Shown one piece after another: positions 7,234 to 50,900 of a stretch of 64,000 nucleotides of DNA. The translations under genes and the position numbers were made by a program. Origin of the DNA: a virus; IMG/VR virus record IMGVR_UViG_3300044629_000431, positions 64,001-128,000 of that record, one strand, 5' to 3'. Every line of letters starts with the position of its first letter. The stretch's first letter is position 1. The notes beneath the pieces were generated by a model, which ran no database searches, had not been told where the DNA came from, and saw nothing but the letters and a program-made list of their open reading frames with translations.

Positions 7234-7380
7234 AATACACCAACCTCTTTCAAATAGTTTCTATACCTCATAAAACGATTCCAGTTTGGTTGTCCTGGAA
7301 CATTTAACTGATAACATATTTCACAATAACACAACCACTCATACCAAGGAGTGGTAGGATCTAATACGTGATATGGATAA

Positions 7381-7587
7381 TCAGAGTTTTCCACCTACTT
7401 CAGACTCATAAGTTTTGGATTCAGCGAAACCTTCCTGCCGTCCTTTAAGATAAAAATGTGTCGCTGAGATACACTGCTGTTCAGTGAGAGACGTGATAAG
7501 TCCGTTGCCATCCTTATCAGTGGAATACCAGAGTCCATACTTTTTTTGCTCAACGTAGAAAACATCATCAATTAGTTTCTTTTCCAT
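7381..7587 (-). CDS. hypothetical protein
   Basis: ORF track. Confidence 0.65.
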   Translation of the reverse strand: MEKKLIDDVFYVEQKKYGLWYSTDKDGNGLITSLTEQQCISATHFYLKGRQEGFAESKTYESEVGGKL

Positions 7588-8058
7588 GCTTTATCTCAGG
7601 ATGAGGAGCGTAAAGAGGACCATCATAGTCCTTATGAATTTCTTTGAGTGCTTTAATCACTTCAGGAGTTTCTTCCCAACTCCATTCGTTTCCATTTTTA
7701 TCAGTAAAGGTGCGTGCTGTCATTTCACTCCTCAAATTTGTAACTTAGTTTGATGTCTTTCTTTTTTAGTTTGTAGCGATCAATGTGCTTTTGGCGGTTG
7801 TGTTCACTATCGAAGTAACACTTACGAGTTTCATTTCCATCTTTGTAAACCAACTTCCAGGGAAACTGGTCAAAAGGAAATTCTTCGGTGTAGTCCATCA
7901 GGTAGGTTGTTCAACACGTTGAGTATACACGGAATCAAACAGTTCGTCAAGTATCTCACCACACTCGTGATACTCTTTGCTATCAAGGATGGTTTTCTCA
8001 AACTGATAGCGACGCACAGCAGTAAAGATGAGTTTATATTGTTCAGAGGTAAAGTTCA

Positions 8059-8535
8059 TCACATTTCTCCAAGTGTATGAATGACTGGTTTTTCGTGTGC
8101 TAGGATGCGGTAAAGGTCTTCATTCTGTGCTGCTGATATGGGAATGAACTCCGTCTTATCATCAAACTCATCATCACGAATTGCTTGGTTAATTACAATA
8201 GATCCTTCTTCTCCTGACCAAGAACGATGGTATGTTCTCTGAGGAATGACCAGAGCACCAGAGCTACGATTAAGATGAACGATGTGATAAGGATACCTCC
8301 ATTCAGGATTTACAAGTTCAAATGTACGAATGCCAGACAGAACACGATTGTGGTCAATCTGATGGTAATGAATGTAAAACTGCTTTGCTCCTACAATATC
8401 ATCAGGAGGAGAGATAGCAGGTCCTTCATGAACTACAAGGTCGGATGCGTTAGAACCTTCTACTGAAATATCGTAGAAGATGACTGACTGGGTTTCACGG
8501 AATACTCTATGCTTCTTAAAAGTTACTTCGCTCAT
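8059..8535 (-). CDS. RmlC-like cupin-fold protein
   Basis: FYIHYHQIDHNRV ... LVIPQRTYHRS cupin-like His motifs. Confidence 0.6.
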   Translation of the reverse strand: MSEVTFKKHRVFRETQSVIFYDISVEGSNASDLVVHEGPAISPPDDIVGAKQFYIHYHQIDHNRVLSGIRTFELVNPEWRYPYHIVHLNRSSGALVIPQRTYHRSWSGEEGSIVINQAIRDDEFDDKTEFIPISAAQNEDLYRILAHEKPVIHTLGEM

Positions 8536-8729
8536 TAGTCGTAGGTGTTTTGCTCCTGATTCAATCTATCTATGTGATGATAAATGGTTGCTTGTGAATA
8601 CTGAAATTCTTTAAACCTTTGAGGTTTATTCTTCTGCATCTTGGTCAGCATATTGATCCATTGATAGCGACTATCCACTACCCAACCATAACGACGCTCA
8701 TCATGCATCAAATCAAAAATTGAGATCAT
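8535..8729 (-). CDS. hypothetical protein
   Basis: ORF track. Confidence 0.6.
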   Translation of the reverse strand: MISIFDLMHDERRYGWVVDSRYQWINMLTKMQKNKPQRFKEFQYSQATIYHHIDRLNQEQNTYD

Positions 8730-18076: not shown

Positions 18077-18115
18077 TGGAGTTTCTCCTGATGTGTGGAT
18101 AGTATAGCAGAAAAA

Positions 18116-19351
18116 TCAGCGTTTGACAACGCTGATGGCAGGAAGACCCTGCTGAAACACGGTGTCCACCACCGCTTGGACCTTCTTAGCGGTGCTGATG
18201 CCCACAGAAGAGTAGACAGGGATACAGACCAACCCAAAGGACTTGGTGTAGTCCTGAAGGGCACCAGGGGCGATCCTGCCGCTGCTGAGACCCTCTGCAT
18301 CGTCCTTGTGCAGGCGGATCACCCGTCCGATGGTCTGGGAGATGCCGATGTAGTCCATGGACCGCATAAACAGCACTGCCTCCAGACCAGACACGTTGAT
18401 GCCCTCGCTCAGAATGCTGTGGTGCAGAACCACAAACTTCTTAGAGTCATCCTTGCCCCAGGCACTCAGAGTGTCGAAGAACACCTCACGGTTGACCTTC
18501 TGACCGTCGATGATAGCACCAGTCTTGGACGTGATATACATCCAAGAGAAACCACGCTCCTCCAGTTGAGTGCAGAAGTCAGTCTGAGAAACCAGAGAAA
18601 CGATCTGCTTGGTTGCTTTAGAGCAGATCAGAACCTTGCCAACCTCTTGAGCATCAATAGTCTGAATGAGGTTCTCACAGTCAACGTCAGCGACGATCTG
18701 ACCCTTGCTGAGCATCTCAAACTGCTGCACCACAACCTTAGGAGGAACGATGAAACCACCGTCCACCAGTTCAGGAGCAGGAACATTGCAGATCACGTTG
18801 CCATAAACGGCAGCGTCATTCATACCAGGTTTGGAAATAGTAGCAGAATGCTTAGGAGTAGCAGTGAAGAAATAGCAGCGGTCAGCATTAGCAGAGAAGT
18901 GCTCCGTAGCAGGGAAAAAGTGACGCTGAACGCTGTTGTGTGCCTCATCAAAGTAAATGGTATCAACGTGAATATCTGCCTGCTGAAGACGCTGCAGGGA
19001 GTTATAGGTGGTAAAAATGAGTTTGTGACCCTTCGCTTGCTCATACCAGGCACGAATCACATTGGGGCGAGTGCTGCTGAAGTGGTGCGTCTCACCAGAA
19101 TGGACGTGCAGAACCTGAGCATTTGTGATAAACTCAAGGAACTCGCTGGACAACTGCTCTGCCAGGAGGATGCGCGGAGCACAGACTACAATAGTCTGAG
19201 GAGTATTTTTCAGAAACTCACGAATAGCATCAAAGATAGCGATGTTGGTCTTGCCGCCGCCAGTCGGGATAATCACCTGACCCTTGCGGTGTTGCAGCAG
19301 GGCATCCAGAGCACGTTGCTGGTGGGGACGGAGTTGAATCACTGACCTCAT
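18116..19351 (-). CDS. superfamily 2 DEAH helicase (type III Res-like)
   Basis: LRPHQ, PTGGGKT (Walker A), DEAH, TATP, LSEGIN, QTIGRVIR. Confidence 0.9.
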   Translation of the reverse strand: MRSVIQLRPHQQRALDALLQHRKGQVIIPTGGGKTNIAIFDAIREFLKNTPQTIVVCAPRILLAEQLSSEFLEFITNAQVLHVHSGETHHFSSTRPNVIRAWYEQAKGHKLIFTTYNSLQRLQQADIHVDTIYFDEAHNSVQRHFFPATEHFSANADRCYFFTATPKHSATISKPGMNDAAVYGNVICNVPAPELVDGGFIVPPKVVVQQFEMLSKGQIVADVDCENLIQTIDAQEVGKVLICSKATKQIVSLVSQTDFCTQLEERGFSWMYITSKTGAIIDGQKVNREVFFDTLSAWGKDDSKKFVVLHHSILSEGINVSGLEAVLFMRSMDYIGISQTIGRVIRLHKDDAEGLSSGRIAPGALQDYTKSFGLVCIPVYSSVGISTAKKVQAVVDTVFQQGLPAISVVKR

Positions 19352-19364: not shown

Positions 19365-19422
19365 ATTATAGCACTAAAAAAGGGGGTCGGAACCCCCTTG
19401 TGCCAGTTGTAAAACTGTCTAT
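19365..19422 (-). promoter_or_regulatory. early-type promoter with GTGCCA motif (copy 8)
   Basis: GTGCCAGTT at 19400; TATAAT at 19365-19370. Confidence 0.65.
19376..19399 (-). terminator. intrinsic terminator after tail-fibre gene
   Basis: AAGGGGG-TTCCGA-CCCCCTTTTTT on the minus strand. Confidence 0.7.
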
Positions 19423-21896
19423 TAGAACAATGTGAAACTTGTAGAACCTACACCAGGAACAGTGAACACTAACTGATTGCCCACCGTTGTAATTTGAACA
19501 GCAGTTCCAATACCACTTAAGAAACCATTGGTTGCTGTTACTATACCAGCACTTACCGTAACACCAGTTCCAACTCTAAGAGATGATGTTGTTGTAACAC
19601 CAGATACATTAAGTTGATCCAACTCAGTGTGTCCCAATACATCAAGTCCACCATTTGCATCAATAAATCCTTCAATTATGGTGTCACCGGTATTGGCGAC
19701 AACAAAGAATTTATCACCACCTGAGGGATTTCTAACAGCAAAGTCGTCATCAACATCGACCGTACCATTAAATTCAGAATTACCATTAATAGTAAGGTTT
19801 CCAAATGTAGAAACACCAGATACATTCAATTGTTTAGTAAAGAATGTAGGACCAGTAACTGTTGTAATGCCACTGAAAGTAGAAATACCTCCGCCTGCGC
19901 CAGGGAAAACATTCAATGAGGTGCAAGTTACAATACCACCAATTACATTGGAAGCATCAGTTGCGAAACCAGTAAAGTTAGCATAAGTTGCAATACCAGA
20001 TCTTTCAGCATAAGAAATTGTTCCGCTTGCCGCCATTTGAACCCAAGCGGAACCAGTATAATACTCAGGAACTGCAGTGGTGGTATTAAATACGACTGCT
20101 CCTCTGATATTATCAGTCGAAGTATCTAAGTTATTTCTCTGAGTTGTATTCAGACGAGGAAGTATCATAAAGCGATACGCATCGCTGAAATATCCAACTC
20201 CTGCTTCAGAGAAATCGACAGCAGCCTTTGGTCGTGTGGTTCCAACACCAACAGATCTTATAAGAACTCTCTTGCCAATAGCATTAATATCAATTTGTGG
20301 ATATGATGCTGTACTACCAACACCAATAAATGATGAAGAAGCAACTAAACCTAAACCACCAACTAGATCTTGATTAGTACCCAGTTGAAGAGAATAGTTG
20401 GTAGTATCAGTTCCGATAGCTACATTTGACAAACTTGCAAGATTAGTTACATCAATATCATAAAATGTTGATACCCCAATAGTATTATTGAGATTTGCAC
20501 TAATGCCACCAAGAACATTTAAATTATTTGTGGTAAAGTTTCCACTAACACCTAAGTCTCCATATAAAGTTGAGTCTCCAACAACAAATAAGTCATCACC
20601 AATGTAAAGATCTTGAGTAATTGTTGAAGTTCCAACAACGTGCAACTCATGGTCTGGATTTGTTTTTGCAATACCCAGTCTACCACCATAAGTCAGAGTC
20701 ATTTTTGCACTCTGATCTTGACCATAAACCCAGTTGAAGTTACCGGTTCCAAGACCAGCAGCACCACGATGAATATAATAGTTTACGCTTCCTCTATCGT
20801 AATTGACAAGATCTAACGATGTTTGCCCACTAAAGGTATCTGCTAAGTTACCAAAACGAATCTCACCACCCTGTTGACCTCTAGTTAAAGTTCTAGCAAC
20901 ACCAACATAAGATTCTTGAGTGCTGGTTAACTGAACTCCACCAACACCATTCTTTACAACATGTATTTCTGCAGTTGGAGAATGAGTATTCAGACCAATG
21001 TTATTTTCAACATAGAGTCTATTTGAAACAGAAGCAATTCCTGTTGTTGAGTTATTTGATACAGTTATGTTTGATGCTGTTACAAAACCCACAATAATAT
21101 CAGGGGTTCCTGTTAATGAACGAGCAGTAGATGCTATTCCAGTTACGTTTCCAGTTACATCACCAGTTACATTACCAATTAAGTTTCCTACAAAACCACC
21201 ACTAGATGTCGTGACTCCAGTTACAACAAGATTATTAGTTCTTACAAATGGGGAAGTTAAAATGCCACTAATATTAATATTTGATGCAAGGCGAGCATTG
21301 TCTAATGTTCCTGCAGAAATATTAGATGCATTTAATGCTGTAACTCCAGCTCCAGAACCAACATAACTTTGAGCAGTAACAATACCTGTCGAGTAGATAT
21401 TACCAGTCGAGTCAATTCCAACACCTGTTGCACCAACATTTGCAAAGATTCTGCTTTGGTCAGAACCACCAACTTGGAAAGGATAGAATGGAGATACTGT
21501 GCTGACTCCAACAAATCCTTGTGCATAAATGCTCGTAAAACCTAGACCAATATCTACATCTAACCATTGAGATGTTGGTAGGTTAAGAAGTCTTCCACCA
21601 TCACCATAATAAGTTACGATTCCAGCGACACCAGTAACAATTCCAGACTGACTAACTGAAACTATACCTGCTCTGATACCACCACTAAACGTAGAAACAC
21701 CCGATGCTCTAATATTTGCAGCAAAAACTTCCGTAGCAGTGACTAGCCCGACTACCTTTGCAGTTCCTCTTACATCAAGAAGTTCGGTTGGAACTGATGT
21801 ACCGATTCCAACCAAACCATTAGGGTTTACGATTAAATTGTCATCATCTACCTGTACACCATTACGAAAGTTAAAAGTTTTTCTAATATTAGCCAT
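19422..21896 (-). CDS. tail fibre / virion structural protein
   Basis: 824 aa; repeated VGIGT, GIVTA and LNVSGVSTF fibre motifs; ATAAATA late promoter at ~21916. Confidence 0.8.
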   Translation of the reverse strand: MANIRKTFNFRNGVQVDDDNLIVNPNGLVGIGTSVPTELLDVRGTAKVVGLVTATEVFAANIRASGVSTFSGGIRAGIVSVSQSGIVTGVAGIVTYYGDGGRLLNLPTSQWLDVDIGLGFTSIYAQGFVGVSTVSPFYPFQVGGSDQSRIFANVGATGVGIDSTGNIYSTGIVTAQSYVGSGAGVTALNASNISAGTLDNARLASNINISGILTSPFVRTNNLVVTGVTTSSGGFVGNLIGNVTGDVTGNVTGIASTARSLTGTPDIIVGFVTASNITVSNNSTTGIASVSNRLYVENNIGLNTHSPTAEIHVVKNGVGGVQLTSTQESYVGVARTLTRGQQGGEIRFGNLADTFSGQTSLDLVNYDRGSVNYYIHRGAAGLGTGNFNWVYGQDQSAKMTLTYGGRLGIAKTNPDHELHVVGTSTITQDLYIGDDLFVVGDSTLYGDLGVSGNFTTNNLNVLGGISANLNNTIGVSTFYDIDVTNLASLSNVAIGTDTTNYSLQLGTNQDLVGGLGLVASSSFIGVGSTASYPQIDINAIGKRVLIRSVGVGTTRPKAAVDFSEAGVGYFSDAYRFMILPRLNTTQRNNLDTSTDNIRGAVVFNTTTAVPEYYTGSAWVQMAASGTISYAERSGIATYANFTGFATDASNVIGGIVTCTSLNVFPGAGGGISTFSGITTVTGPTFFTKQLNVSGVSTFGNLTINGNSEFNGTVDVDDDFAVRNPSGGDKFFVVANTGDTIIEGFIDANGGLDVLGHTELDQLNVSGVTTTSSLRVGTGVTVSAGIVTATNGFLSGIGTAVQITTVGNQLVFTVPGVGSTSFTLF

Positions 21897-21923: not shown

Positions 21924-23099
21924 CTATTTCTTAATTGCTTTAAAAATAATGCAGGGCGACGCTGCATCTTGTCTAGTAGATGCACCACTAACATATTCAT
22001 CGTTTACGTCTTCTTTCATTGGAAAAACATTGTAAAACAAGAAATCAATTAAATCACGATGTCTTCTACCAAGTGGTGTCAAAATATCATACATTTGCAC
22101 ATTATTTCCCATTTTTTCAATAACTTTTTCCCAGAAATTAATGGAGGTCCCATCTTTAAATCTCAAAGTCAGGTTTCCATTGTTACCCTTTTTATTGACA
22201 AAAAATTCATGCACTTCATTAATAAAAAATGTTTTTAAGTGAATTGTAGAATCCGTTTGTGGAATAATATGACCATCAGGAACTGAAAAATTATACTGTT
22301 CAAGTCTACGAATAAATGCTGGGACGTTCATTAACATTCCTAGACTTTGATCAGAGTATCCATATTCCCTGGATATTGGTGACATCACATTAAATGGGTT
22401 ACGTTGGTTTTTAAACCTATCCCAATGCCTTTGCTCCTCTTCAGTCCAATAGTTCACAGTATATTTTTTCTCACCAGTTCGTAAATCGTAAGTTTTTTCT
22501 GCTGTAGATTCAATCATATACTCGGTATATCTATCAACATCGGACATAATTTTACTTTCCTGAGATATGGTCATTACCTTTTCAAAATCAACTGTTAAAT
22601 CAAATTCAGATATTACGCCAGGCATTGCAGAACCTGGATGCTTGCTAAACAAAGTTCCACCTGGTTTTAATACCCTATAGCATTCTTTTATCATTTGCTC
22701 AACATCTTCAGCATAACCTATTGTTTCTAAAAACAATAACGTGTCAAAATAGTTGTCTTCAAATGGAAGTTTGTCCCAACTTGCTATTTTAAATCTTGAT
22801 TCATATCCTGGATTTCTTTCTTTAGCACATTTTATTTGCTCTTCAGAAATGTCAATACCATAATATTTGACAGATTTTTTCTTTTTAATAAGTCTTTTAA
22901 AAAAATATCCTCCACCACATCCACACTCCAGTACATATTGTCCCATTTTGGACATTTTAATAATATTATCTACATCTTGATCAATAAATGTACTAGGATC
23001 AGAGTCTAGATCAACTAAAAGTGCTCCATTGTAATAGTTACCTTCATCATTACTCAATAAAGGTGCAATAGCATTATAGTATTCAAGAGTATTGTCCAT
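21924..23099 (-). CDS. class I SAM-dependent methyltransferase
   Basis: VLECGCGGG, YYGIDIS, LPFEDNYFD, FLETIGY, RVLKPGG. Confidence 0.85.
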   Translation of the reverse strand: MDNTLEYYNAIAPLLSNDEGNYYNGALLVDLDSDPSTFIDQDVDNIIKMSKMGQYVLECGCGGGYFFKRLIKKKKSVKYYGIDISEEQIKCAKERNPGYESRFKIASWDKLPFEDNYFDTLLFLETIGYAEDVEQMIKECYRVLKPGGTLFSKHPGSAMPGVISEFDLTVDFEKVMTISQESKIMSDVDRYTEYMIESTAEKTYDLRTGEKKYTVNYWTEEEQRHWDRFKNQRNPFNVMSPISREYGYSDQSLGMLMNVPAFIRRLEQYNFSVPDGHIIPQTDSTIHLKTFFINEVHEFFVNKKGNNGNLTLRFKDGTSINFWEKVIEKMGNNVQMYDILTPLGRRHRDLIDFLFYNVFPMKEDVNDEYVSGASTRQDAASPCIIFKAIKK

Positions 23100-23113
23100 T
23101 TTTTTATTTTTAT

Positions 23114-23854
23114 TTATTGAATATATGGATTGGTGGAGTTATATGTTCTATAGAATTTGATAGTTGGTTTTTGATCTTTATAGAGCTTTACTTTGAAATG
23201 AAAATGGAACTTATTTGGAGTGTATCCATCAAAAATACGTTCATACTTATTAAAAATAGTTTTATTGATATTTGGAAAACACTCAAGCAATATATTTTTT
23301 GTATTTAAAAAAGTATCAACTGAATAGTTTGGTAGTAGTTCTACATTGATATTATCATGAATTACATTTCCATTTTTATCAAAGTCAAAAGCATATAAAA
23401 CATTATATGTGCCACCACCAAGAACTCTTGCTAGGTCTACAGCATCACTTTTCATCTTATGATCTATATTATTAAACTCACCAAGCAAAAACCCACATTT
23501 AAAATCTGTGTCTTTACCAATATTATCAATTAATTTGGTAAAATAACTGTATCTATATTTTGTATTAAGTCCAAATGACTTATTAATTAAATCATATTCT
23601 TTTTCGGTGACACCATTTACAGATAAATGAAAATATGGAGACTCAATAAACTTATTCTGTGGTGTTATTGCTTTGTGAAATGTTCTCAGACCTTGAACTT
23701 CATTTAGTTCATTTGTCAGAATATTGTAGATATAGTTGTAGTCATTTTTTATTTTCGACTTTTCTTTAAAAGAAACTTCACTATAGTCTAAAAAACAATA
23801 ATGATATGAAACATGGTCAGAGGTCAAGTCCCTCTCAAAAAGATAATAAGTCAT
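23114..23854 (-). CDS. hypothetical protein, paralog of 26772-27491 (possible ABBA prenyltransferase-like)
   Basis: Shared AFD/GFD ... ELxP ... HxKxK ... IKxYR motifs. Confidence 0.5.
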   Translation of the reverse strand: MTYYLFERDLTSDHVSYHYCFLDYSEVSFKEKSKIKNDYNYIYNILTNELNEVQGLRTFHKAITPQNKFIESPYFHLSVNGVTEKEYDLINKSFGLNTKYRYSYFTKLIDNIGKDTDFKCGFLLGEFNNIDHKMKSDAVDLARVLGGGTYNVLYAFDFDKNGNVIHDNINVELLPNYSVDTFLNTKNILLECFPNINKTIFNKYERIFDGYTPNKFHFHFKVKLYKDQKPTIKFYRTYNSTNPYIQ

Positions 23855-24540
23855 AATTGATTGTTATGAATACCAAGCCAGAATACAATTGTATATCTAT
23901 TTCCAGAAGTAATAGGAGTTACTCCATGATAGTACATCCAGTTACTGGGGAAAACAATAACATCACCAGTTTTAAAACCAAATGTTTTTCCTATTGATGG
24001 AAAATCTAAATATCCCCCCTCATAGTTCTCATTTAAGTAAACACATACTGTCAGTAACCTAGAGAAGTTTAGTGACTCTGCATAATGATCATGATGTATT
24101 CTAAAAAAGTCATCTTTAGAATAGTCTAAAATGTGGGAATCGCTGATATTTAATCTATCACCATAGGCATAATAAAATGGTCTAACATCTCTTACATATC
24201 TTCTACCAACTTCTGCAGATATGTCACGAATAATTTTATTTGAAAATGTTTTGAACTCATCATCAACAGCAAAAAGATTGACATATTCACCTGTCCTTAA
24301 CAGGTCTGTCATTGGACTATCAAACTCATTCTTGTGCTTCTCATTATGAATTTTTTGAGAAAATTCCTCACAAATTTCTTTTTTTACCAAATTTGTATAA
24401 ACTTTCACATAATCATCCATGTTTAAATTAAATTTGTTATCTTTAACTTCGGATAACATTTCAAGGTATTCCTTATTAAATCCATTCCTATACTCTTGAT
24501 TATTAAATCTAGAATATAAATTTGTAAAAGTATTATGCAT
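23851..24540 (-). CDS. prolyl-4-hydroxylase-like 2OG-Fe(II) oxygenase
   Basis: HHD ... YLNENYEGG ... HGVTPITSGNRY. Confidence 0.9.
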   Translation of the reverse strand: MHNTFTNLYSRFNNQEYRNGFNKEYLEMLSEVKDNKFNLNMDDYVKVYTNLVKKEICEEFSQKIHNEKHKNEFDSPMTDLLRTGEYVNLFAVDDEFKTFSNKIIRDISAEVGRRYVRDVRPFYYAYGDRLNISDSHILDYSKDDFFRIHHDHYAESLNFSRLLTVCVYLNENYEGGYLDFPSIGKTFGFKTGDVIVFPSNWMYYHGVTPITSGNRYTIVFWLGIHNNQL

Positions 24541-25039
24541 CTTCTACACAAATATCAATACTAATAAATTCGAAATCTTTATCTGAGTTATTTTTTGCAG
24601 AATGTTTTATATGTCTTACATCAAAGAAGTATAGTTCTCCTTTTTTCCAATTAATTTCTTCATCGCCATAGTAAAACATTGCCTCAGTATCCATTAAAGG
24701 AATGTGTGCTCTAAAGAATTCTTTATGCCAATAGCAAGTATCAACATGCTCTCCAACATGCTGACCTGATGGAACTGTTATTTTTGAGAATGCCAGGATA
24801 CGATCATCATTAGCAAACTTTTCAATTGTTTCTGTAGAATACTTATCTTTTGGAATGGTTGCTTCTTCTCTTGGAATCTTCTTGAATGCATAAAGAACGC
24901 ATCCACTGTCATCATCAATATTCCAAGAAATTTTCATATTTGTTTTTGGACTAAAGTATTCATCCAAAATCAACGGTTTTAACTCATTAATTTTATTATA
25001 AAAGTCAACATAATAAGGTCTAGAAAAATCAATAGTCAT
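24533..25039 (-). CDS. aspartyl/asparaginyl beta-hydroxylase-like 2OG-Fe(II) oxygenase
   Basis: EHVD ... RAHIPL ... WKKGELYFFD ... HSAKN. Confidence 0.8.
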   Translation of the reverse strand: MTIDFSRPYYVDFYNKINELKPLILDEYFSPKTNMKISWNIDDDSGCVLYAFKKIPREEATIPKDKYSTETIEKFANDDRILAFSKITVPSGQHVGEHVDTCYWHKEFFRAHIPLMDTEAMFYYGDEEINWKKGELYFFDVRHIKHSAKNNSDKDFEFISIDICVEDA

Positions 25040-25647
25040 AATTTCTCATAAGCTCCCATATCAATATTTAGAACCTTCAAGTAAAGGGGGTCATTTGTAA
25101 AGTGTGAACCTAGATATTCTCTATCATTCTCATAAAGAATGTCAAAACAAAGGAAACAAAGATCTACGTCTTTTGACTTGTTCGTTCCACTATGAGAGTC
25201 GTAAACAAAATCAAGTATAAAGGGTTTTCCTACTTCAACTTTAATAGTTCCAAAACTTTCAGCAGTAATATAACTTTCATCAGCGGTAATAGGAACTAAA
25301 ATTCTCCAAAGGTTTTTGCCATAATAAGGAGGGTCTACATGCTCCTTAATGTCAGAACTTGCTGCAAAAGTATTCAAACTCACAGTTGGAATATTCTCAT
25401 CTAGAATAATATCCTTAAGTTTATCACTATAAAAGTTTTTAAGTTGAAGTCCATCCGTTGGAGACTTGATAACTCTAAATCTCCAGTCTCCATATTCATA
25501 TTTTGATGGAACTTTATATTCAGGAACTTCTGTGAAGTCTTGTTTTAAAACATCTGGAGTTACATCAAGAATTTTTTGAAAGTAACTCTTTACATACTTA
25601 GACTCTAGATCTAAAAAGGGCTTATTCTGGGGAGTCGTCGATTTCAT
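25036..25647 (-). CDS. aspartyl/asparaginyl beta-hydroxylase-like 2OG-Fe(II) oxygenase
   Basis: EHVDPP ... WRILVPI ... HSGTN. Confidence 0.7.
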   Translation of the reverse strand: MKSTTPQNKPFLDLESKYVKSYFQKILDVTPDVLKQDFTEVPEYKVPSKYEYGDWRFRVIKSPTDGLQLKNFYSDKLKDIILDENIPTVSLNTFAASSDIKEHVDPPYYGKNLWRILVPITADESYITAESFGTIKVEVGKPFILDFVYDSHSGTNKSKDVDLCFLCFDILYENDREYLGSHFTNDPLYLKVLNIDMGAYEKL

Positions 25648-26779
25648 AACTTACATCTAGATTAACAACACGTGATTCTGAAGTATCTTCTGCTACAGCA
25701 TCACTTGAGAATGATGTTGAGTATGAAAGTGTAGTAGAAGAATCTGTAGTTGATGTCACACCAACACCATCATAAGATATTTTTTCTTCACAAGGAACTT
25801 GAACAAATTCAGCTTGTTCTGGGTGTTGTGAAATATAGTTTTCTCTATACTCAGAATATCTCTGCATGTATGGAGCATTTGGATGCGTAGGATCAATTTG
25901 AGACTTTTCAATACCTTCGTTATATGTCTTATTGATATGAGGAAGTTCGGAAATATGATTGATAGCATCGGCAACTTTTTTGAACACAAATATCATACAC
26001 TCATGATATCTGTTTGGGGCATAATTTTGAGTCTCATTCTTTCTAATATGTTCAATATAAGATGGATGTGCTTCACAAAATTCATCAGATGAACAGAAAG
26101 TTTCATTATAAGTCATTACATCATATTCTGGGACTTCAATTTTTTCAACTTCAAAACCATTCTCAAGAAAACTTTCTTCTATGAGACTTTTGTTTGGAAG
26201 CATACCAAGAGATGCCTCACTATATCCATATTCTTTTTCTATGTCAGCAAACTTTTCTTGATATTTTGAATCAAGTTCTTCATCATGAACTACTTTAATT
26301 GGGTTTTTAATAATTACTCTACCACCAATTTTAAGTCCTGTTGATATAGTCTTAATAAGAGTATCAAGATTTGTTGTGTAACCAATACTTTCAATAAAGT
26401 AAACCGCATCAAAATACGGTTCAGCCATTACAAGTTCATTCATATCTTTACAGAAAAAAGATGATGCATAACTTTCTGCAGATTTTGATGCGTTATCAAT
26501 TTGCTTTTCACAGCAATCTACACCAAGATATCTACAATTTTTGTAGTTTGGATGAGTTTTTAAGAACTTATGAAACTGACCATTACCGCAACCAACATCG
26601 GCAATGAATGAATCGTGATTAAGTTCCCCCAAGTCTGCTAAGTACTGATAGTTTTGTTCCCTAAGACCTAAAGATCCATACTTTTCACTTTTAATCAAAG
26701 CAACTTGATATCCCTGAGGATACTTTTCGTTGATTACATCAGCAAGAGAATCATAATAAGATACGGTTGTTTCATCCAT
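25622..26779 (-). CDS. class I SAM-dependent methyltransferase
   Basis: IADVGCGNG, YLGVD, YFDAVYFIESIGY; paralog of 21924-23099 (EYGYS-x2-SLGML in both). Confidence 0.85.
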   Translation of the reverse strand: MDETTVSYYDSLADVINEKYPQGYQVALIKSEKYGSLGLREQNYQYLADLGELNHDSFIADVGCGNGQFHKFLKTHPNYKNCRYLGVDCCEKQIDNASKSAESYASSFFCKDMNELVMAEPYFDAVYFIESIGYTTNLDTLIKTISTGLKIGGRVIIKNPIKVVHDEELDSKYQEKFADIEKEYGYSEASLGMLPNKSLIEESFLENGFEVEKIEVPEYDVMTYNETFCSSDEFCEAHPSYIEHIRKNETQNYAPNRYHECMIFVFKKVADAINHISELPHINKTYNEGIEKSQIDPTHPNAPYMQRYSEYRENYISQHPEQAEFVQVPCEEKISYDGVGVTSTTDSSTTLSYSTSFSSDAVAEDTSESRVVNLDVSYEIDDSPE

Positions 26780-27491
26780 AGTAAAATTCTGGAATGTTTA
26801 CGTTGATTGATCTGTAATACTTTATGTTTTTAATTTCCCCGTTTTCAATTTTAAACTTAACGTGGGAAAACTTTTTGAAGTTTAAAAAATATCTTTCAAA
26901 TGGATCTGTATTGATACCATAAATCTTCAAAATATTTATAAAGCCCTTTGAACCATCAATAGTATTTTGTGGATATAACTCTAAATGAACTGTGTCGTAA
27001 TTGAGTTTTCCTCCACATCCATCAAAACCCAAACAATAAAAAATTGGATTGAACTTAGATATAATTTCTCTGGTCATATCTAGAGTATTAGTTCCCATAT
27101 CAAATTCATCTAAATTTGCTTTGGGAAATATTTCTCGATGAGGAATATCATCTCCAATATCATCTAGATTAAAAGTAAAAGAGTTTTGATTTCTAATAGG
27201 GATAATTCCTAGTTTATTCACCTCATCGTATTTACTCTGGTCCTTCAGAGTAAAGTTTACAAAAGTTCCCCTGCGAGAAATATTCAAAAATAGAATATGA
27301 AAATTTATATTCTCAAACTTTTCTTTGATAGTTGCCTCTATTTTAAATAATTTTGAACTATTTTCACGTTCTGGTATTTGAGATAAACTCTTATAACCAT
27401 AATGATATGAAAAATATGGTTGAGAGTAAATCTCCCGTTCTATTCCAATACCAAAATCAGAATGTAACTGTACTACCTGCTGTTGTTCCAC
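26772..27491 (-). CDS. hypothetical protein, paralog of 23114-23854 (possible ABBA prenyltransferase-like)
   Basis: LGFD ... HLELYP ... FSHVKFK ... IKYYR. Confidence 0.5.
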   Translation of the reverse strand: MEQQQVVQLHSDFGIGIEREIYSQPYFSYHYGYKSLSQIPERENSSKLFKIEATIKEKFENINFHILFLNISRRGTFVNFTLKDQSKYDEVNKLGIIPIRNQNSFTFNLDDIGDDIPHREIFPKANLDEFDMGTNTLDMTREIISKFNPIFYCLGFDGCGGKLNYDTVHLELYPQNTIDGSKGFINILKIYGINTDPFERYFLNFKKFSHVKFKIENGEIKNIKYYRSINVNIPEFYYG

Positions 27492-28461
27492 TTGTCAATA
27501 CCACATAATAAGCACTACTTCTACGACGAATTGCATCTCCACCAGAACCTCCACTACCTCCACCACTCGCGCCCCATCCTCCACCTGGTGATCCAGAATT
27601 AGAGCAAATAGTTCCTTGAGGATATCCTCCACAACGTCCACCACCGCCGCCGCCAGAACCAGGAACGGTGCTTGTGTCCTCATCACCATCTCCACCAGAT
27701 CCACCACCACCTGCCGGGAAGTTTGATGGTGGTGCGCCGCTGCCCCCGCCGCCTGCACCACCACCTTTTCCACCACCTCCACCAGATCCACCAATAGAAG
27801 TATTACTTACGTTACAGCAATAACATTCATTAAATGATTGTGTTTTGCCGCCACTACCGCCTCCACCACCTCCACCACCAAGAATACGGTTATTATTTTT
27901 AAGATAGATATTTGAAGCAACAGAAAAAGCCGTTCCACCTGGAGATCCAGATCCTCCACCATCTCCACCCTTTCCACCTTTTCCATAAATTGCATAGTCA
28001 TTAGTCAAATAGCAAGTTGTATTTGATCTAGAACCTTGTGGAATTGTCAAACCATAGTTTGATGTTAGAGTTGCTCTACAATTACCAGTTGTTTCTGCAT
28101 CAAAAAATACCGTATTGTTGCTATTAGATTTTAATGCTTCATTTTCAATCGTATTAACATCAATTGAAGCATTATTTCCACTTAACTGGACTACCGCTTG
28201 TCTAGCATAATAGTATACTTTATTGTAAAAATTAGTAAGAGCAATAGTTGTCCCAGCTCCAGCAACAGGAACATTATCAAAATGAGATGCTTTTGTTGGA
28301 TGACTTGAATCAGTTCTTGCTTGATCAGTGCATTTATTTTTCTTCAAATATGTAGAACCATAATAAAACTCATTCATTGCAACCTGACCCTGTGGACCTA
28401 AGTTTGTATACTCTGTTCTTAGATCCGATAAAGCAATTTGTCCGCTTGATTGTAAGGTCAT
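27457..28461 (-). CDS. gp38-like glycine-rich tail-fibre tip adhesin
   Basis: IYGKGGKGG and NNNRILGGGGGGGG motifs as in T2-type gp38; glycine-rich blocks alternate with short variable loops; lies downstream of the S74-bearing long fibre. Confidence 0.75.
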   Translation of the reverse strand: MTLQSSGQIALSDLRTEYTNLGPQGQVAMNEFYYGSTYLKKNKCTDQARTDSSHPTKASHFDNVPVAGAGTTIALTNFYNKVYYYARQAVVQLSGNNASIDVNTIENEALKSNSNNTVFFDAETTGNCRATLTSNYGLTIPQGSRSNTTCYLTNDYAIYGKGGKGGDGGGSGSPGGTAFSVASNIYLKNNNRILGGGGGGGGSGGKTQSFNECYCCNVSNTSIGGSGGGGGKGGGAGGGGSGAPPSNFPAGGGGSGGDGDEDTSTVPGSGGGGGGRCGGYPQGTICSNSGSPGGGWGASGGGSGGSGGDAIRRRSSAYYVVLTSGTTAGSTVTF

Positions 28462-29111
28462 TTTTGTATTGAAAATGTATATGGTCCTGATTTGAATTTT
28501 GATGGAACAAAATTCATAGAGATAGAGACTCTTCCATTACCGATATTTATATCATACCCATGATCTAAATGAGATGACCAAAGAACCAAATCACCTTCTT
28601 CAATAAAGTCACAAACTATTTCTTTTTGATTGAATGCTGTTGTTTCCGCGATGTTCAAATCAAAAAATGGTTCTACGTGAAGATTAAGAAATGGATTCAA
28701 GAATATAAGTGTAGAATGAATAGATGGAATATAGTTTACATAATAAGTTGCAGATACAAATGAGTTTCCGTGACTATGAAATCTTTGAAACCCATTTTTA
28801 TAGCAAGTGTTTATCCAGCAGTCAGTAATAATCAAATCATCCTCAAGGTCATATCCCATCACCCCCCTCACAAATCCATATGAAGACTCAAGCAAAAACT
28901 CTTTAAAGTCTTCATCATTGATATAATCAAAGAAACCTTTTTCTAGTTCGGAAGAATTAAAGAAATGTTTAAGTTCTGGAGAAGTAATACCATCAACTTC
29001 TAGTTCTTTATTTTCTTTAATAAAGTCTAGAATTTTATCTTTAAACTCATTACGCTTTGGATATTGTACCTTTGCAATAGGAACTGGAAATAAAGGATAT
29101 ACGCCTAGCAT
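28458..29111 (-). CDS. putative 2OG-Fe(II) oxygenase (TIGR02466-like)
   Basis: LFPVPI ... WIN ... HSHGNSFVSATYY ... LDH ... RVSISMN. Confidence 0.85.
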   Translation of the reverse strand: MLGVYPLFPVPIAKVQYPKRNEFKDKILDFIKENKELEVDGITSPELKHFFNSSELEKGFFDYINDEDFKEFLLESSYGFVRGVMGYDLEDDLIITDCWINTCYKNGFQRFHSHGNSFVSATYYVNYIPSIHSTLIFLNPFLNLHVEPFFDLNIAETTAFNQKEIVCDFIEEGDLVLWSSHLDHGYDINIGNGRVSISMNFVPSKFKSGPYTFSIQK

Positions 29112-29116
29112 ACTTT

Positions 29117-29162
29117 AAAAAGATAATACCAGTACTATAAACTAGCACTGGTATTTTGTCAA
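29117..29162 (-). promoter_or_regulatory. sigma70-type promoter overlapping a terminator-like hairpin
   Basis: TTGACA (29157-29162)-N17-TATAGT (29134-29139); inverted repeat AATACCAGT/ACTGGTATT followed by a T-run. Confidence 0.6.
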
Positions 29163-32100
29163 CCTATTTTCTTTTCCAGAGCATCTACCTTAGCAGAGAG
29201 TTCCTTGATAGCTTCGATAAGCAGAGGAACAATCTTCTCATACTGAACAGTGATGTAGTCTCCACTTACAGGTGCTGGTTTGACTGCCTCAGGAAGAACT
29301 GCCTGAACTTGTTGTGCAGAAACACCAACGTGAGTTTCTTCAGTATTAAAACCAAGTGAACCAGCGGTTTCATTGAATGTATAAGTGAAACCACTTAACT
29401 GAAGAACTTTATCGAGTGCATTCTCAAGAGGTTGAATGTTTGTCTTGAGTCTTTCGTCAGAAACGAAAGCAATGACATCACCAGTTGCACTGAACTCACC
29501 AGTGACTCTAGCACCATCAGAACGGGTATTGATTCTAACTGTGTTGTCATGATAGAGGTTGATTGCACCATCAGCGACGGCATCAATCATGCTTTCGCCA
29601 GTATACTTCTGAATGTATACTCCACCATTTCCACGAATGAATAGTGAACCAGTTCCTCTATCATCAATATAACTGTTCGAACCATCATGGAATAGATCAA
29701 GGTCATCACTATCACCAAGATACAGGTGATCGTTATCACCAAATCTTATGGTTCCATTAGCAGTAATATTTCCAGTAATCGTTGCAACTCCAGCAACGTT
29801 GAGGTTTCCACAGATATTCAGATTCTTAGCAATACCTGCACCACCAGCAACAACTAAGGCACCAGTCGTGCAACTGGTAGACTCGGTGGTTCCAGCAATA
29901 GTTTGAACGCCACCAATGTTCAGGTTCTTCTCAACACCTAGACCACCTTCAAGAACCAGAGAACCAGTATCCTTGCTTGTTGATTGTGTTGTTCCATTTA
30001 CTGTGACATCACCACCAACATTCAGGTTCTTTTCAATACCAACACCACCATCAACAATCAGAGCTCCAGTGTCTTTGTTTGTTGATTGAGTTGTATTTGT
30101 AATTTCTACAGTATTGTTAACTTTCAGAGCACCATTGATTTGAACATCATCATTCATCTTCAACTCTTGGTTGAAGGTGACAGGACCATCAAACTGTGAA
30201 AGAATCTGACCAGAGTTTCCACCTTCAACAAGAATTCTTTCCTTGACAATAACTTCATCAAATACAACAGAAAGACGTGAAGGATCTTGTCCAGTTATGG
30301 TTGGAACTGGAATATCAAAAGTAATTTGCTCACCAGACTGTGCAGAATACTTGGTATTTCCAATAAAGAAGTCGCCATCGCTGTTCATACCAGTGTAAAT
30401 AACAGAACCGCAAGAACTTTCTTGAGACTGAGCAAGGAAGTCTTCTCTTTCAGTCAGAGTTCTGTTCTGAACCTGTGGTAGACCAGTTGAGTAGTTACCT
30501 GGTCCATATCCCATATATTCAAAAGTATGACCAGATGCACGAACAATCGATGGTCTACGAAGTTCAATAGGTACGGGTTTGATCTTGCGAATCATAGACC
30601 CTGAAGTATGGTTCTCTTTCAGAGTACCCATCGCTCCACGAATGACCTGGATTTCATCGTTTCCAGAACCAGACAGCGTGCTGCTGGTGATTCTCATAAT
30701 CTCATTATTGATTTGAATATAAGAACCAAGTGGGAATCTTCTTGTGGTTCCAATACCAGCATTTGGTACGCTTACCTTGAACTGAGTATCATTTGTAATA
30801 GTTTGTCCAAGAGTCAGAACTTCATTCTGATAGAGAGAAACACCTCTAGTTCCAAGATTTTCACCAAGTGAATCTGATGTTGCTTCGTTTGCAGAAAGTG
30901 CGTGCTTTAAGAGTTTTACTGAAGCAGGAATACTCTTTCTCGTTTTGGATGTGAATGATGTTGGTGAAATAAGTTCATTAACAACAAAGTCTCCAAGATT
31001 ATTATGAGAAGAGTCAAGAACTCTAAACTTATTACCTGCTACAAGACCGTGAGGAGTTCCACAAACAAAAGTCGAAATACCCGTTGCTGAATCGTAAGAT
31101 GGAGCAGAGCTAACATTGATTGAAGGGGCAATGTTAACGAAGTACTGACCTACAACAATACTTGGATCTCCAGAAGTTTGACCAACGGCAATTTGATTCT
31201 TAGCAGGAATATCAAGAACTCTATAGTATCCATCTGTGACTGTACCAAGTCCAGTAAACTGAACTGAGTTTCCAATAGATGTTGAAATACCAGAAGTTGC
31301 AATGGTAATAGCAGCACTTGGAGAACCACCAATTTGGTTGCTATCAAGATATAGTGTTTCACCAGTGGTGTATCCGGAACCACCAGTAATAATATCTAAG
31401 GAAGTAACTGAACCACCAGCAGATACAACTACCTTTGCAGTTGCACCATCCCAGTTTGTAAGAGTATTTTCATTATAAAGTTTGACGTTATAGTAGGTTC
31501 CTGGATTATGACCAGTTCCAGCAGTCAATGCATTGTAAGTTACAACACCATTCAGTTGATGCTCTCTGTTAAAGGTAACAGTGGTAATACCAGAAGAGGA
31601 GGTTGTGATGCCAGTTACAATTGGACTTAAACCAAAGTAATGGAAGAACTTATCAACTGTTTCTCTAGTGATACTCTTTCTCAGATCGTTAGTTACGGTC
31701 TTACCAAGAGGATCTCTGTAGGCAAAAGTGACCGATGCCGCAGGGTTCTCATTTACATTATCCTTATCCAACTGAGGATAAAGATCGACAACACTCTGAG
31801 AATACTTAAGGTTGGTAAACTCAGTTTGAATTGCATTAGAAGAGTTTAACAGATAAACGTGATATACACCATCTTGTGTATTGTAGATGTATGGTGTGAT
31901 AACCTCACTTCTGTAAACAAAGAAGTTTCCTTTCAGGTCGTTTCTTTCAAAGCGAGGAAGTGAAACCGTTCTGTTATTTGTATTATTAGTAAATGCACCT
32001 GGAGTATGAACGGTTCCGAAGATGTCTGTTGCACTGTATCTGAATGACTTATCATTAACAATTTCAGTAATTAGGAATGTACCATTGTATCCAATGTTAA

Positions 32101-34774
32101 TGGTTCCAGAAGTATTCGTAGTGCTGGTAACATTCTTAATGATAACTTGATCACCCGCTTTAAGATTGTGTGGGAGATCAGAAGTAACAGTTACAATACT
32201 TGTTACAGCATTGAACGTACAAGTGCTAATGAATCTTGGATTACGCTCAAACAGATAGTCAGCTGCGGTAATACTTGAGAGTGAGAAGTCTGCATCACTT
32301 CTTGCACCTGTTGTGCTTGATTCTTGAATGATGAATCCTTCATTAGGATCTCTACCATTTACAAGTTCTTTTGGAACAACAATACGAACTTTGTAAAGTT
32401 TTTCATCCAGACTTCTATTATCTTCAAAGCGTTTGAAGTAAGAAACTGCTGTTCTTTCTGTCAGTCCCGCTATGCCAAGTGTATTGATAGTAGTGTAAAT
32501 ATCATTATTCGTATTTGCATGAACATACCAACCAGAGTTTACCGAGTCCCATTGAATTGGTGAACCAATTTCACTAGCAGACTTATCAGATACTCTACTT
32601 ACAACTTTGAGTTGCACACCACCATAAATGGTAATTGGTTGTGGAGTTGCTGCTTCTGCATTTGTTTTGGAAGAAGCAATTTTAATTTGAGTTGACGAAT
32701 GACGAATTGCATAATAGATAACGTTTTCTTCCAAGTTTTCTGGAAGATCACCAGCATCACTAATGACTCTAATTTTTTCACCAGTTTGAATAGTATGACT
32801 TCCTAGAGTTAGAATATTAGAACCAGATGATGTTGCACTGTATACTTTTTCAGATGACCAAGTTCCAAGAGCAATAGTTGTTCCCGAACCAATGATATTA
32901 TCAAGCATTAAAATGCTTGCACTCTTTGTTCCTGATGGAGTTTCTAAGTAGAGAGTATCATTAACTCTTGCACCAACACGATATCCTTGTGTGATAACTG
33001 GTGGTTCAATGTCTGGGTTATTGAAACCATACAGATAAAGATGACTTGAGATACCAACTTGCTTAACTTTGTTTACGTCAAAAGAAATCCAGTCAATATT
33101 TTGTTCTTCATTAACAACTGCTCTTGGCGTAACAATCGATGTAATGAATGCTTTATTGTCTTTATCAAAGGCTTCTTTTTTGAAACCGTCTGCAGATAGT
33201 GAGAACTGACCAAAGTTAGAGTTTGAGTTGGTGATAGAGGCATCACCACCAGACTCTACAGCAAAGTGCTTGTTGAAACCGATTGCGAATACAGAAACAA
33301 CCTGAATAAATGAATCATTTGTTGTTTTGATGTGAACTGGTTGCCAACCGTGTCTGTAAATTGCACCAGAATCAAGGTGATAAACTGTTGCAATATTTGT
33401 TGAAGATGAACCAGCAGAAAGTGCTGCTCCAGTTACTTTAGTATAAGAAATTGAGTCATATACTCTATTTGACTCATTATATTTTACGAATGCACGGTCG
33501 TCTTTTTGCAGAGACACAGCGGTGAACTGTGCAACAACCATCGAACGGAAACCTGATGCTTTGCTACCATCAGCGTGCATACCTTGCATACCCCACACGG
33601 AGCGTAGCGAGATATTGAAGATATATGGAGATGCACCTGAAACCGTATCTGTTTCAATGGTTACTGTTGCTGAAGAACCACTCAGTCCAGCAGCAGGACC
33701 TGCAGGTAGATTATCTCTTACGAAAGGAAGAACATAAGTAAACTGAGTTGCACTTGTAACTACCTGAACTTTTGTAGAGATATTATAGTCATCTACGTTG
33801 ACTCCACGAATTTTAATTGGAGTTCCAGCAGTCAGTCCATGAGCGACTGTTGTTGTGACTGTTACAATTGAACCAGGAGTTGCACCATCACCAGAAATGA
33901 TGGAGCTCATATTAATTGGGTCTGATGCAAAAGCACCAACGATTTCCCACTCAGGACGTTGCTTGGCGAAACCTAAAGTTTGATCTGGATATTTTTGATC
34001 AATATCTCTACCAGATGCCAGATTAAAGGCATTCGATAGTTTACTATAATACATATCAAGATCGGTCAATCCATATCCAGTAGGAAGATTGACACCATCA
34101 CAATATTCAAAACAGGTTAGTTTATGGTGAGAGAATGTTGGTTTTGCCTGATTATTTGAAGAAAAATCGGCAGCATCAGTATAGACTAGTGTGTTTTCAT
34201 CACCATCAAAGATAGAAAACTGCCAGAAATAGCAAGCGCCAGTAATTCTAAAGATGGCAGAGTTTGCTAGAAGATCGTCTGTTGGGTTAGGAACATATCT
34301 TGGACGAATCTTGGTCTTTCTTAAGTCTAGACCAACGATCGAAGTTCCACGAGGTACAACAACACCACCGTAGACACTATTAAACTTATAAAGAATATTT
34401 TCCGACTGAGTTAAATCAAAATTACTGGTTAAGGTTAAACTTAACTCATTTTGAGCGACTGATTCTGCACCAGAAGGAGATACTGCAGTTGCAACTCCAC
34501 CAACACTCTTAATTGCATAACCAGGTCTGTTATCAATAAGGTGCTCACCTGGAAAGAGCAAAATTGTGGTTTTCTCAACAATATCGTTATTATCCCCTCT
34601 TAAATACGAAAATCTAGCAGATTCAAGCAGTGCTCTCTGAATCGTTTTAAAAGGTTTTGTTAAAGAGTTACCCTGATTTTCAATACTATCCGTTGCATCA
34701 AGGTCATTAGGGTTTACATAAAGAATGCGACCTTCAGTATTCCTAATAAAATTTTCTAGCTTATTCAGTGGCAT
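29159..34774 (-). CDS. long tail fibre protein with C-terminal peptidase S74 intramolecular chaperone
   Basis: 1871 aa; TGALVVAGGxGIxKNL repeats; SDERLKTNI ... GVSAQQV ... YEKIVPLLIEAIKEL. Confidence 0.9.
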   Translation of the reverse strand: MPLNKLENFIRNTEGRILYVNPNDLDATDSIENQGNSLTKPFKTIQRALLESARFSYLRGDNNDIVEKTTILLFPGEHLIDNRPGYAIKSVGGVATAVSPSGAESVAQNELSLTLTSNFDLTQSENILYKFNSVYGGVVVPRGTSIVGLDLRKTKIRPRYVPNPTDDLLANSAIFRITGACYFWQFSIFDGDENTLVYTDAADFSSNNQAKPTFSHHKLTCFEYCDGVNLPTGYGLTDLDMYYSKLSNAFNLASGRDIDQKYPDQTLGFAKQRPEWEIVGAFASDPINMSSIISGDGATPGSIVTVTTTVAHGLTAGTPIKIRGVNVDDYNISTKVQVVTSATQFTYVLPFVRDNLPAGPAAGLSGSSATVTIETDTVSGASPYIFNISLRSVWGMQGMHADGSKASGFRSMVVAQFTAVSLQKDDRAFVKYNESNRVYDSISYTKVTGAALSAGSSSTNIATVYHLDSGAIYRHGWQPVHIKTTNDSFIQVVSVFAIGFNKHFAVESGGDASITNSNSNFGQFSLSADGFKKEAFDKDNKAFITSIVTPRAVVNEEQNIDWISFDVNKVKQVGISSHLYLYGFNNPDIEPPVITQGYRVGARVNDTLYLETPSGTKSASILMLDNIIGSGTTIALGTWSSEKVYSATSSGSNILTLGSHTIQTGEKIRVISDAGDLPENLEENVIYYAIRHSSTQIKIASSKTNAEAATPQPITIYGGVQLKVVSRVSDKSASEIGSPIQWDSVNSGWYVHANTNNDIYTTINTLGIAGLTERTAVSYFKRFEDNRSLDEKLYKVRIVVPKELVNGRDPNEGFIIQESSTTGARSDADFSLSSITAADYLFERNPRFISTCTFNAVTSIVTVTSDLPHNLKAGDQVIIKNVTSTTNTSGTINIGYNGTFLITEIVNDKSFRYSATDIFGTVHTPGAFTNNTNNRTVSLPRFERNDLKGNFFVYRSEVITPYIYNTQDGVYHVYLLNSSNAIQTEFTNLKYSQSVVDLYPQLDKDNVNENPAASVTFAYRDPLGKTVTNDLRKSITRETVDKFFHYFGLSPIVTGITTSSSGITTVTFNREHQLNGVVTYNALTAGTGHNPGTYYNVKLYNENTLTNWDGATAKVVVSAGGSVTSLDIITGGSGYTTGETLYLDSNQIGGSPSAAITIATSGISTSIGNSVQFTGLGTVTDGYYRVLDIPAKNQIAVGQTSGDPSIVVGQYFVNIAPSINVSSAPSYDSATGISTFVCGTPHGLVAGNKFRVLDSSHNNLGDFVVNELISPTSFTSKTRKSIPASVKLLKHALSANEATSDSLGENLGTRGVSLYQNEVLTLGQTITNDTQFKVSVPNAGIGTTRRFPLGSYIQINNEIMRITSSTLSGSGNDEIQVIRGAMGTLKENHTSGSMIRKIKPVPIELRRPSIVRASGHTFEYMGYGPGNYSTGLPQVQNRTLTEREDFLAQSQESSCGSVIYTGMNSDGDFFIGNTKYSAQSGEQITFDIPVPTITGQDPSRLSVVFDEVIVKERILVEGGNSGQILSQFDGPVTFNQELKMNDDVQINGALKVNNTVEITNTTQSTNKDTGALIVDGGVGIEKNLNVGGDVTVNGTTQSTSKDTGSLVLEGGLGVEKNLNIGGVQTIAGTTESTSCTTGALVVAGGAGIAKNLNICGNLNVAGVATITGNITANGTIRFGDNDHLYLGDSDDLDLFHDGSNSYIDDRGTGSLFIRGNGGVYIQKYTGESMIDAVADGAINLYHDNTVRINTRSDGARVTGEFSATGDVIAFVSDERLKTNIQPLENALDKVLQLSGFTYTFNETAGSLGFNTEETHVGVSAQQVQAVLPEAVKPAPVSGDYITVQYEKIVPLLIEAIKELSAKVDALEKKIG

Positions 34775-50857: not shown

Positions 50858-50900
50858 TTGGATACCTCGGATAGTTTGGATTCGGGGGATTTACTTAGAT

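Follow-up and report, generated by a model that had tools for sequence, protein, structure and literature searches.

Minimal PT-barrel proteins encoded with methyltransferases and a gp38-like adhesin in an uncultured T4-like myovirus

Results

Two paralogous genes define a new family of minimal PT-barrel proteins

We analyzed a 64,000-nucleotide stretch of viral DNA (hereafter the window; positions 64,001 to 128,000 of IMG/VR record IMGVR_UViG_3300044629_000431) from an uncultured T4-like myovirus whose record spans 146 kb and is ~69% complete. Its closest tail-protein relatives are found in Synechococcus and Prochlorococcus phages (52–62% identity). Two genes on the minus strand of the window, at 26772..27491 and 23114..23854, encode paralogs of 239 and 246 aa, here termed PT-barrel A and PT-barrel B, which belong to a new family of 230–250-aa proteins with a minimal version of the prenyltransferase (PT) barrel of ABBA (alpha-beta-beta-alpha) enzymes. 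Each is paired with an S-adenosylmethionine (SAM) methyltransferase (MTase) gene, and both pairs lie in a conserved cassette together with hydroxylase-like genes and a predicted gp38-like tail-fibre adhesin gene. We tentatively propose, at slightly less than an even chance, that the PT-barrel proteins are soluble prenyltransferases which use dimethylallyl diphosphate (DMAPP) or geranyl diphosphate (GPP) of the host and which, with the MTases and hydroxylases, modify the adhesin or the fibre tip.

The initial annotation of the window, made from the sequence alone, had linked these two unknown proteins through a few shared motifs. Both open reading frames (ORFs) lie exactly where it placed them, every motif that it quoted is present, and the two products can be aligned by BLASTP (E 2e-8, 26% identity over 161 residues). 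Additionally, they align end to end in a family alignment of 44 sequences, in which 12 columns are invariant, among them the SYH motif, E171 (within the HLELYP/NVELLP block), HxK and KxYR. Between orthologs, the ratio of nonsynonymous to synonymous substitution rates (dN/dS) was 0.09–0.26 for both PT-barrels and 0.08–0.14 for MTase A, the partner of PT-barrel A. Thus, with dN/dS of 0.08–0.26, the PT-barrel and MTase A genes are real and under constraint.

Homologs of the PT-barrel proteins were found only among metagenome-derived proteins, on viral or metagenomic contigs, where they form two subfamilies. Only 23 matches, none longer than 253 aa, came out of an exhaustive hidden Markov model (HMM) search against 1.84 billion cluster representatives. 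This marks the family as tiny and as free of fusions to other domains; no fused PT–MTase protein occurred among all matches of this search. When the family alignment was used for a pattern scan of 185,579 species genomes, no cellular genome yielded a relative. Among 50,697 deposited phage records, tblastn found no match for PT-barrel A, for a member of the second (type II) cassette architecture described below or for the adhesin, and megablast with the cassette also found none.

PT-barrel A is predicted to adopt a reduced ABBA fold

The AlphaFold2 (AF2) model of PT-barrel A, built from the 44-sequence alignment, had a mean predicted local distance difference test score (pLDDT) of 91.8 and a predicted TM-score (pTM) of 0.87, with all five models at 90.7 or above. 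It is composed of five beta-hairpin-plus-helix units and therefore contains ten strands, which run antiparallel as in a PT barrel. The best 50 Foldseek matches in the PDB were all ABBA, DMATS or cyanobactin prenyltransferases (E from 2e-6, probability 1.0), and VIA-align agreed, matching the model only to these same groups. The best structural matches were the indole prenyltransferases MpnD, TleC, IptA and FgaPT2. Protein-language-model neighbours, which we treat only as a lead, include the Trp_DMAT, PTase_Orf2 and DUF5838 clusters (scores 0.82–0.86). Thus, the proposal of a PT barrel, first made from a handful of motifs, was correct at the level of the fold. PT-barrel B probably shares this fold, given its homology to A. 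The model of A indicates a reduced variant of the ABBA fold, with one helix per hairpin rather than the canonical two.

To define the conserved positions, we compared 27 sequences down to 16% identity. S28, H30, K212, K224, Y226 and R227 are invariant in all 27, and E18, N70, F105, E171, P174 and H210 are nearly so. Positions 19 and 119 are basic throughout, position 214 is Lys or Arg in 25 of the 27, and aromatic residues occupy many strand positions. Because aliphatic and polar residues alternate along strands 8–10, the side chains of H/N169, E171, H210, K212, K/R214, K224 and Y226 are expected to point into the lumen of the barrel. In known ABBA enzymes, basic residues neutralise the diphosphate and Tyr residues hydrogen-bond to it (PMC7973389). 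A lumen lined by Lys, Arg, His and Tyr together with acidic and aromatic residues, as the sequence pattern suggests, is what a diphosphate/carbocation site requires, and the conservation resembles that of an active site.

Several observations weigh against the proposed prenyl transfer and against the adhesin as its target. A common fold is no proof of function, as the inactive ABBA protein PatF illustrates. The PT-barrel A model has 6 helices of at least four residues, fewer than the ~10 of the alpha-beta-beta-alpha arrangement, and its TM-scores against prenyltransferases are just 0.45–0.58, with a root-mean-square deviation of 4–6 Å. Its conserved basic and Tyr residues lie mostly on strands 2, 9 and 10 and not all round the barrel. 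Neither A nor B has a match in Pfam, PHROGs or NCBIfam, phmmer and profile searches of the PDB returned nothing significant, and PF11468, PF11991 and PF19156 matched none of the 44 family members at E ≤ 10. At two loci (L008/L009), a family member occurs outside such a cassette, in another context. Finally, as regards the adhesin as substrate, the 2-oxoglutarate (2OG) oxygenases of cyanophages have been given other roles; the classic cyanophage genomics paper treats them solely in relation to the handling of 2OG and nitrogen stress and to DNA repair (PMC3037559). For comparison, canonical ABBA enzymes of 290–430 aa have ~10 helices around 10 strands, and PagF has 10 helices (PMC7973389). PF11468 also found nothing in the phage genome, even at E 10.

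Some of these features would suit a PT-barrel scaffold that has been reused, so that the proteins might serve as binders of a different anionic or phosphorylated ligand, as a cyclase or lyase, or as a carrier of substrate for the MTase, with no prenyl transfer. Sequence homology to prenyltransferases is undetectable, the helix layer is reduced and the TM-scores are only moderate; moreover, the conserved acidic residues E18, E/D20 and E171, like the S-x-H motif, are not known as standard ABBA motifs. However, every solved protein of this fold that we found is a prenyltransferase or a direct relative of one, and the cluster of Lys, Arg, His and Tyr with aromatic strand residues answers the needs of a diphosphate/carbocation site. 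We regard reuse for another purpose as unlikely.

Each PT-barrel gene is paired with a methyltransferase of one dedicated lineage

MTase A (25622..26779, minus strand, 385 aa) starts within the 3' end of the PT-barrel A gene, with an overlap of 8 nt, and MTase B (21924..23099, minus strand, 391 aa) follows the end of PT-barrel B after a gap of 14 nt. Both are class I SAM-dependent MTases, scoring 48.8 bits (E 1e-12) and 81 bits (E 1e-22), respectively, with Methyltransf_11 against a cut-off of 21.2. As had been suggested, they are paralogs, matching at E 3e-17 over the Rossmann core and a second segment that contains EYGYSxxSLGML. Residues G63, G65 and G67 of the GxGxG SAM motif are invariant across three MTase lineages. 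In addition, MTase A, MTase B and the 243-aa MTase of a divergent cassette have Y9, Y24, Q93, D124, F128, E130, Y186, P217 and H238 in common, and these shared invariants outside the SAM motif indicate that the three form one dedicated lineage.

The affinity to sterol, tocopherol or GPP C-methyltransferases that was first proposed for these enzymes found no support. Pfam and NCBIfam gave generic Methyltransf_11/25-type matches only. The GPP 2-C-methyltransferase model reached 18.9 bits on the cassette MTases against a cut-off of 400, the NCBIfam models for UbiE, UbiG, BioC and cyclopropane fatty acid (CFA) synthase each left them far below the cut-off, and no sterol-methyltransferase C-terminal domain appeared in their Pfam listing. 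The best PDB matches were mixed (LahSB, an archaeal "sterol" methyltransferase, phosphoethanolamine methyltransferases and MitM) and covered the Rossmann core only, at residues ~45–165.

The two MTases also differ in their accessory segments. The C terminus of MTase A is an acidic, low-complexity tail of ~90 aa rich in Ser and Thr (25622-25900), which is kept in close relatives (locus L005) and absent from the MTases of L006, L007 and the type II cassettes. MTase B carries an insertion of ~60 aa following the Rossmann core.

A gp38-like adhesin and hydroxylase-like enzymes complete the cassette

The initial annotation had named an adhesin as a possible target of modification. Directly upstream of PT-barrel A, a 334-aa protein with Gly-rich blocks is encoded at 27457..28461 (minus strand), one gene downstream of a gp37-like fibre gene. 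In a Foldseek search with its AF2 model (pLDDT 86.4), the only significant PDB matches were gp38 of PP01 and S16 (E 1e-8 to 1e-6), so the neighbourhood does hold a protein of gp38 type by fold. A precomputed PF05268 match is present on 25 of 25 close homologs; in a direct Pfam scan for PF05268 the best score, 21.4 bits from a homolog, stayed under the threshold of 25. On the evidence of its predicted fold, we take the protein to be a gp38-like tail-fibre adhesin.

Every gene from 34774 down to 19422 is on the minus strand, with tight spacing or overlaps. The upstream border of the cassette is the gp37-like distal long tail fibre of 1871 aa (29159..34774), which matches phrog_529 tail fibre at E=0, has C-terminal matches to long-tail-fibre distal PHROGs and is syntenic in related loci. 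Between it and the adhesin lies a 217-aa 2OG-Fe(II) oxygenase of the PF13759/TIGR02466 type (28458..29111; Pfam 2OG-FeII_Oxy_5, E 4e-13; phrog_81). Three genes separate MTase A from PT-barrel B. They encode a 203-aa cupin-like protein (25036..25647; phrog_25655, E 1e-9), a 168-aa Asp/Arg beta-hydroxylase-like cupin (24533..25039; Pfam Asp_Arg_Hydrox, E 5e-7, above cut-off), which the 203-aa protein cross-matches in tblastn, and a 229-aa prolyl-4-hydroxylase (P4H)-like 2OG-Fe(II) oxygenase (23851..24540; Pfam 2OG-FeII_Oxy_3, E 5e-14; phrog_61). Downstream of MTase B, an 824-aa tail protein (19422..21896; phrog_3269 tail protein, E 6e-91) forms the other border.

Several further features of this region were recorded. 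The 203-aa and 168-aa cupin proteins are paralogs, both belonging to phrog_25655, and Asp_Arg_Hydrox scores only in the shorter one. The GC content over 22001–26000, the second half of the cassette, is 0.30–0.32, against ~0.38–0.40 in the adjoining fibre and tail genes; this could reflect foreign origin or different constraints. A 416-aa open frame on the plus strand (18095-19345) lies exactly antisense to a 411-aa helicase gene in a GC-richer stretch and is most likely a spurious shadow ORF. The T4 late-promoter motif TATAAATA is not enriched, with 4 occurrences found against 3.8 expected. Neither psbA nor a polyprenyl synthase is present in the 146-kb phage fragment, which is 69% complete.

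The cassette is conserved across divergent loci

We compared ~45 related loci (18 + 29 from IMG/VR and metagenomes, some of them duplicates), which fall into three architectures. Type I has the gene order of the window. In type Ib, the second module is ordered with the MTase before the PT-barrel gene, and a single divergent copy stands in place of the pair of 203-aa and 168-aa cupins. Type II consists of a gp38-like gene, oxygenases, three unknowns, an AspH (Asp/Arg-hydroxylase-like) gene, an MTase, a P4H-like gene, a PT-barrel gene, a further AspH gene and a PF13759 oxygenase. Homologous PT-barrel, MTase, P4H-like, AspH-like and gp38-like genes are kept in all three, with PT-barrel proteins that are just ~30% identical.

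The gene directly upstream of PT-barrel A is gp38-like in 24 of 24 loci, and MTase A lies directly downstream in 25 of the 25 metagenome loci with downstream sequence. In every cassette-type locus, the PT-barrel and MTase genes are adjacent or have one gene between them. The annotation from which we started had described a duplicated two-gene module. Its pairing of PT-barrel and MTase is indeed conserved, but the order of the pair varies (MTase before PT-barrel and MTase–oxygenase–PT-barrel both occur) and the pairs are part of a nine-gene cassette. Given this conserved synteny, the real unit is a cassette of eight enzymes plus the adhesin and not two genes.

The place of the PT-barrel genes between fibre and tail genes raises a non-catalytic alternative, in which the proteins help to assemble the fibre or adhesin as chaperones, or are minor components of the virion, and their barrel fold is incidental; T4-type phages do require dedicated fibre chaperones. 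Such a role would leave the invariant polar and charged residues, which are predicted to face the lumen, unaccounted for. The tight linkage of the genes also extends to MTases and oxygenases and is not confined to fibre genes, two ancient paralogs have both been kept, and no PHROG structural family was matched. We consider this alternative very improbable.

Variation among the loci extends to gene number. In the type II cassette of a 188-kb IMG/VR contig (L012), two PT-barrel genes stand in tandem (7218-7988 and 7992-8729) with a single MTase, and the copy number of the barrel gene thus varies independently of the MTase. An apparent loss of PT-barrel B at locus L004 was rejected, since the contig ends early and longer loci show the MTase-before-PT-barrel order. 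The type II cassette of L011 (4450-5908 and 9842-10369) encodes four more conserved unknown proteins of 116, 163, 209 and 175 aa; by eye, those of 163, 209 and 175 aa resemble cupins or 2OG oxygenases, and a Pfam scan of the 163- and 209-aa proteins gave no match. Within the cassettes, neither the ten cassette genes nor the type II cassette gave a Pfam match of protease or precursor type.

Discussion

The presence of two PT-barrel/MTase pairs beside hydroxylase-like enzymes and a predicted adhesin suggests that the protein by which the phage recognises its host may be chemically decorated by the phage's own enzymes. In the mechanism that we propose, the PT-barrel proteins would take an allylic diphosphate, either DMAPP or GPP, from the cyanobacterial host, a source suggested by the lack of a polyprenyl synthase in the phage fragment. 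The invariant cluster of His, Lys, Tyr and Arg residues on strands 2, 9 and 10 would bind the diphosphate, and the prenyl group would pass to an electron-rich acceptor. Each PT-barrel would work with its dedicated class I SAM MTase, alongside the P4H-like, Asp/Arg-hydroxylase-like cupin and PF13759 enzymes. The most likely substrate would be the gp38-like adhesin encoded in the cassette, or else the fibre tip, and the outcome would be a receptor-binding surface that is hydroxylated, methylated and prenylated. The two pairs might serve two sites or two donors. Catalysis, donor, acceptor and reaction order are what we infer from fold, conserved residues and gene neighbourhood. In PagF-type peptide prenyltransferases, the pocket is solvent-exposed and suited to large substrates (PMC7973389).

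A more specific form of this proposal is that such phages lipidate their own receptor-binding protein, with a virus-specific minimal prenyltransferase, an MTase and hydroxylases placing a prenyl, possibly methyl-prenyl, group on the gp38-like adhesin. In this form, we think it somewhat unlikely.

The same set of enzymes could instead belong to an auxiliary or secondary-metabolite pathway. The PT-barrel proteins would then prenylate a free aromatic or indole-type metabolite, the MTases and oxygenases would tailor it, and the position next to the fibre would mark a hypervariable accessory island. The closest structural matches named above are small-molecule indole prenyltransferases, and a PT, an MTase and a 2OG oxygenase make up a classic natural-product tailoring set. 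Additionally, cultured cyanophages carry 2OG oxygenases in the same island between tail-fibre and helicase genes with no obvious link to the virion, and the GC content of the cassette (0.30–0.32) is below that of its surroundings. We assign this explanation a low probability.

If modification of the adhesin or fibre tip by the PT-barrel proteins is borne out, they would include the first viral ABBA-fold prenyltransferase and yield the first prenylated virion protein, and prenylation would adjust how the phage adsorbs to the envelope of the cyanobacterium. Soluble PT-barrel prenyltransferases have been described in the secondary metabolism of bacteria and fungi and in the cyanobactin pathways for ribosomally made peptides with post-translational modifications (RiPPs). 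A full-text literature search found no paper linking phages with ABBA or aromatic prenyltransferases. At 240 aa and with half the usual helices, the barrel would represent the fold in its smallest version, which makes it attractive as a catalyst for late-stage prenylation of peptides or proteins. Eight tailoring enzymes interleaved with a gp38-type adhesin would point to an overlooked layer of host range, in which the receptor-binding protein is modified chemically and not by sequence change alone. The proposal also provides a role that can be tested for some of the 2OG oxygenases of marine cyanophages, many of which are unexplained.

Comparison with known systems

The nearest peptide-modifying relatives by fold, the cyanobactin F-type enzymes (PagF, PirF, KgpF, LimF, DciF and the inactive PatF), are proteins of 280–300 aa with ~10 helices that belong to recognised sequence families. 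In contrast, the phage proteins have 239–246 aa and, in the model of A, ~6 helices, lack any sequence match and are encoded beside a folded adhesin of 334 aa. The phage cassette also lacks the precursor peptide and the PatA/PatG proteases of the cyanobactin RiPP pathway. DMATS and indole prenyltransferases (MpnD, TleC, IptA, FgaPT2 and CymD) are larger, at 340–430 aa, act in bacterial and fungal secondary metabolism and are recognised by Pfam Trp_DMAT, whereas the phage proteins have no Pfam match and no indole-scaffold genes nearby. From the Orf2/NphB/CloQ group of ABBA enzymes they differ in size and helix complement, and PF11468 does not match them.

Proteins with PT-barrel-like models are also encoded by the cultured cyanophages S-RIM44, ACG-2014e, S-CAM1 and S-CAM3. 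These uncharacterised BFVD models match at Foldseek E 7e-5 to 6e-4 with TM ~0.5; the proteins are 284–329 aa long and have no sequence similarity to the present family. In S-RIM44 (KU594607.1), the 290-aa hypothetical protein AMO43291.1 is encoded at 50291-51163 (locus L024:13291-14163). Since gp32 is the only other ORF of 290 aa, this protein is probably the BFVD match A0A1D7SG87, an assignment by length alone; searches for the S-RIM44 analogue by sequence, with a broad-family HMM, PF19156 and hhalign, gave no match. The AMO43291.1 gene follows two 2OG oxygenase genes and lies between a short-tail-fibre gene and the helicase, the same island as the present cassette, but unlike that cassette it has no adjacent MTase or Asp/Arg-hydroxylase. 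Host-recognition regions of cyanophages may thus encode PT-barrel-like proteins more widely than has been noticed, and since S-RIM44 and the ACG-2014e/S-CAM phages are cultured, a test system exists.

Lastly, the cassette resembles the gp37–gp38 tip of T-even phages such as S16 and PP01 in its order of fibre then adhesin and in the gp38 fold predicted for the 334-aa protein. We know of no tailoring enzymes that accompany gp38 in enterobacterial phages. The present cassette departs from the T-even tip in that its adhesin gene is interleaved with those of eight enzymes.

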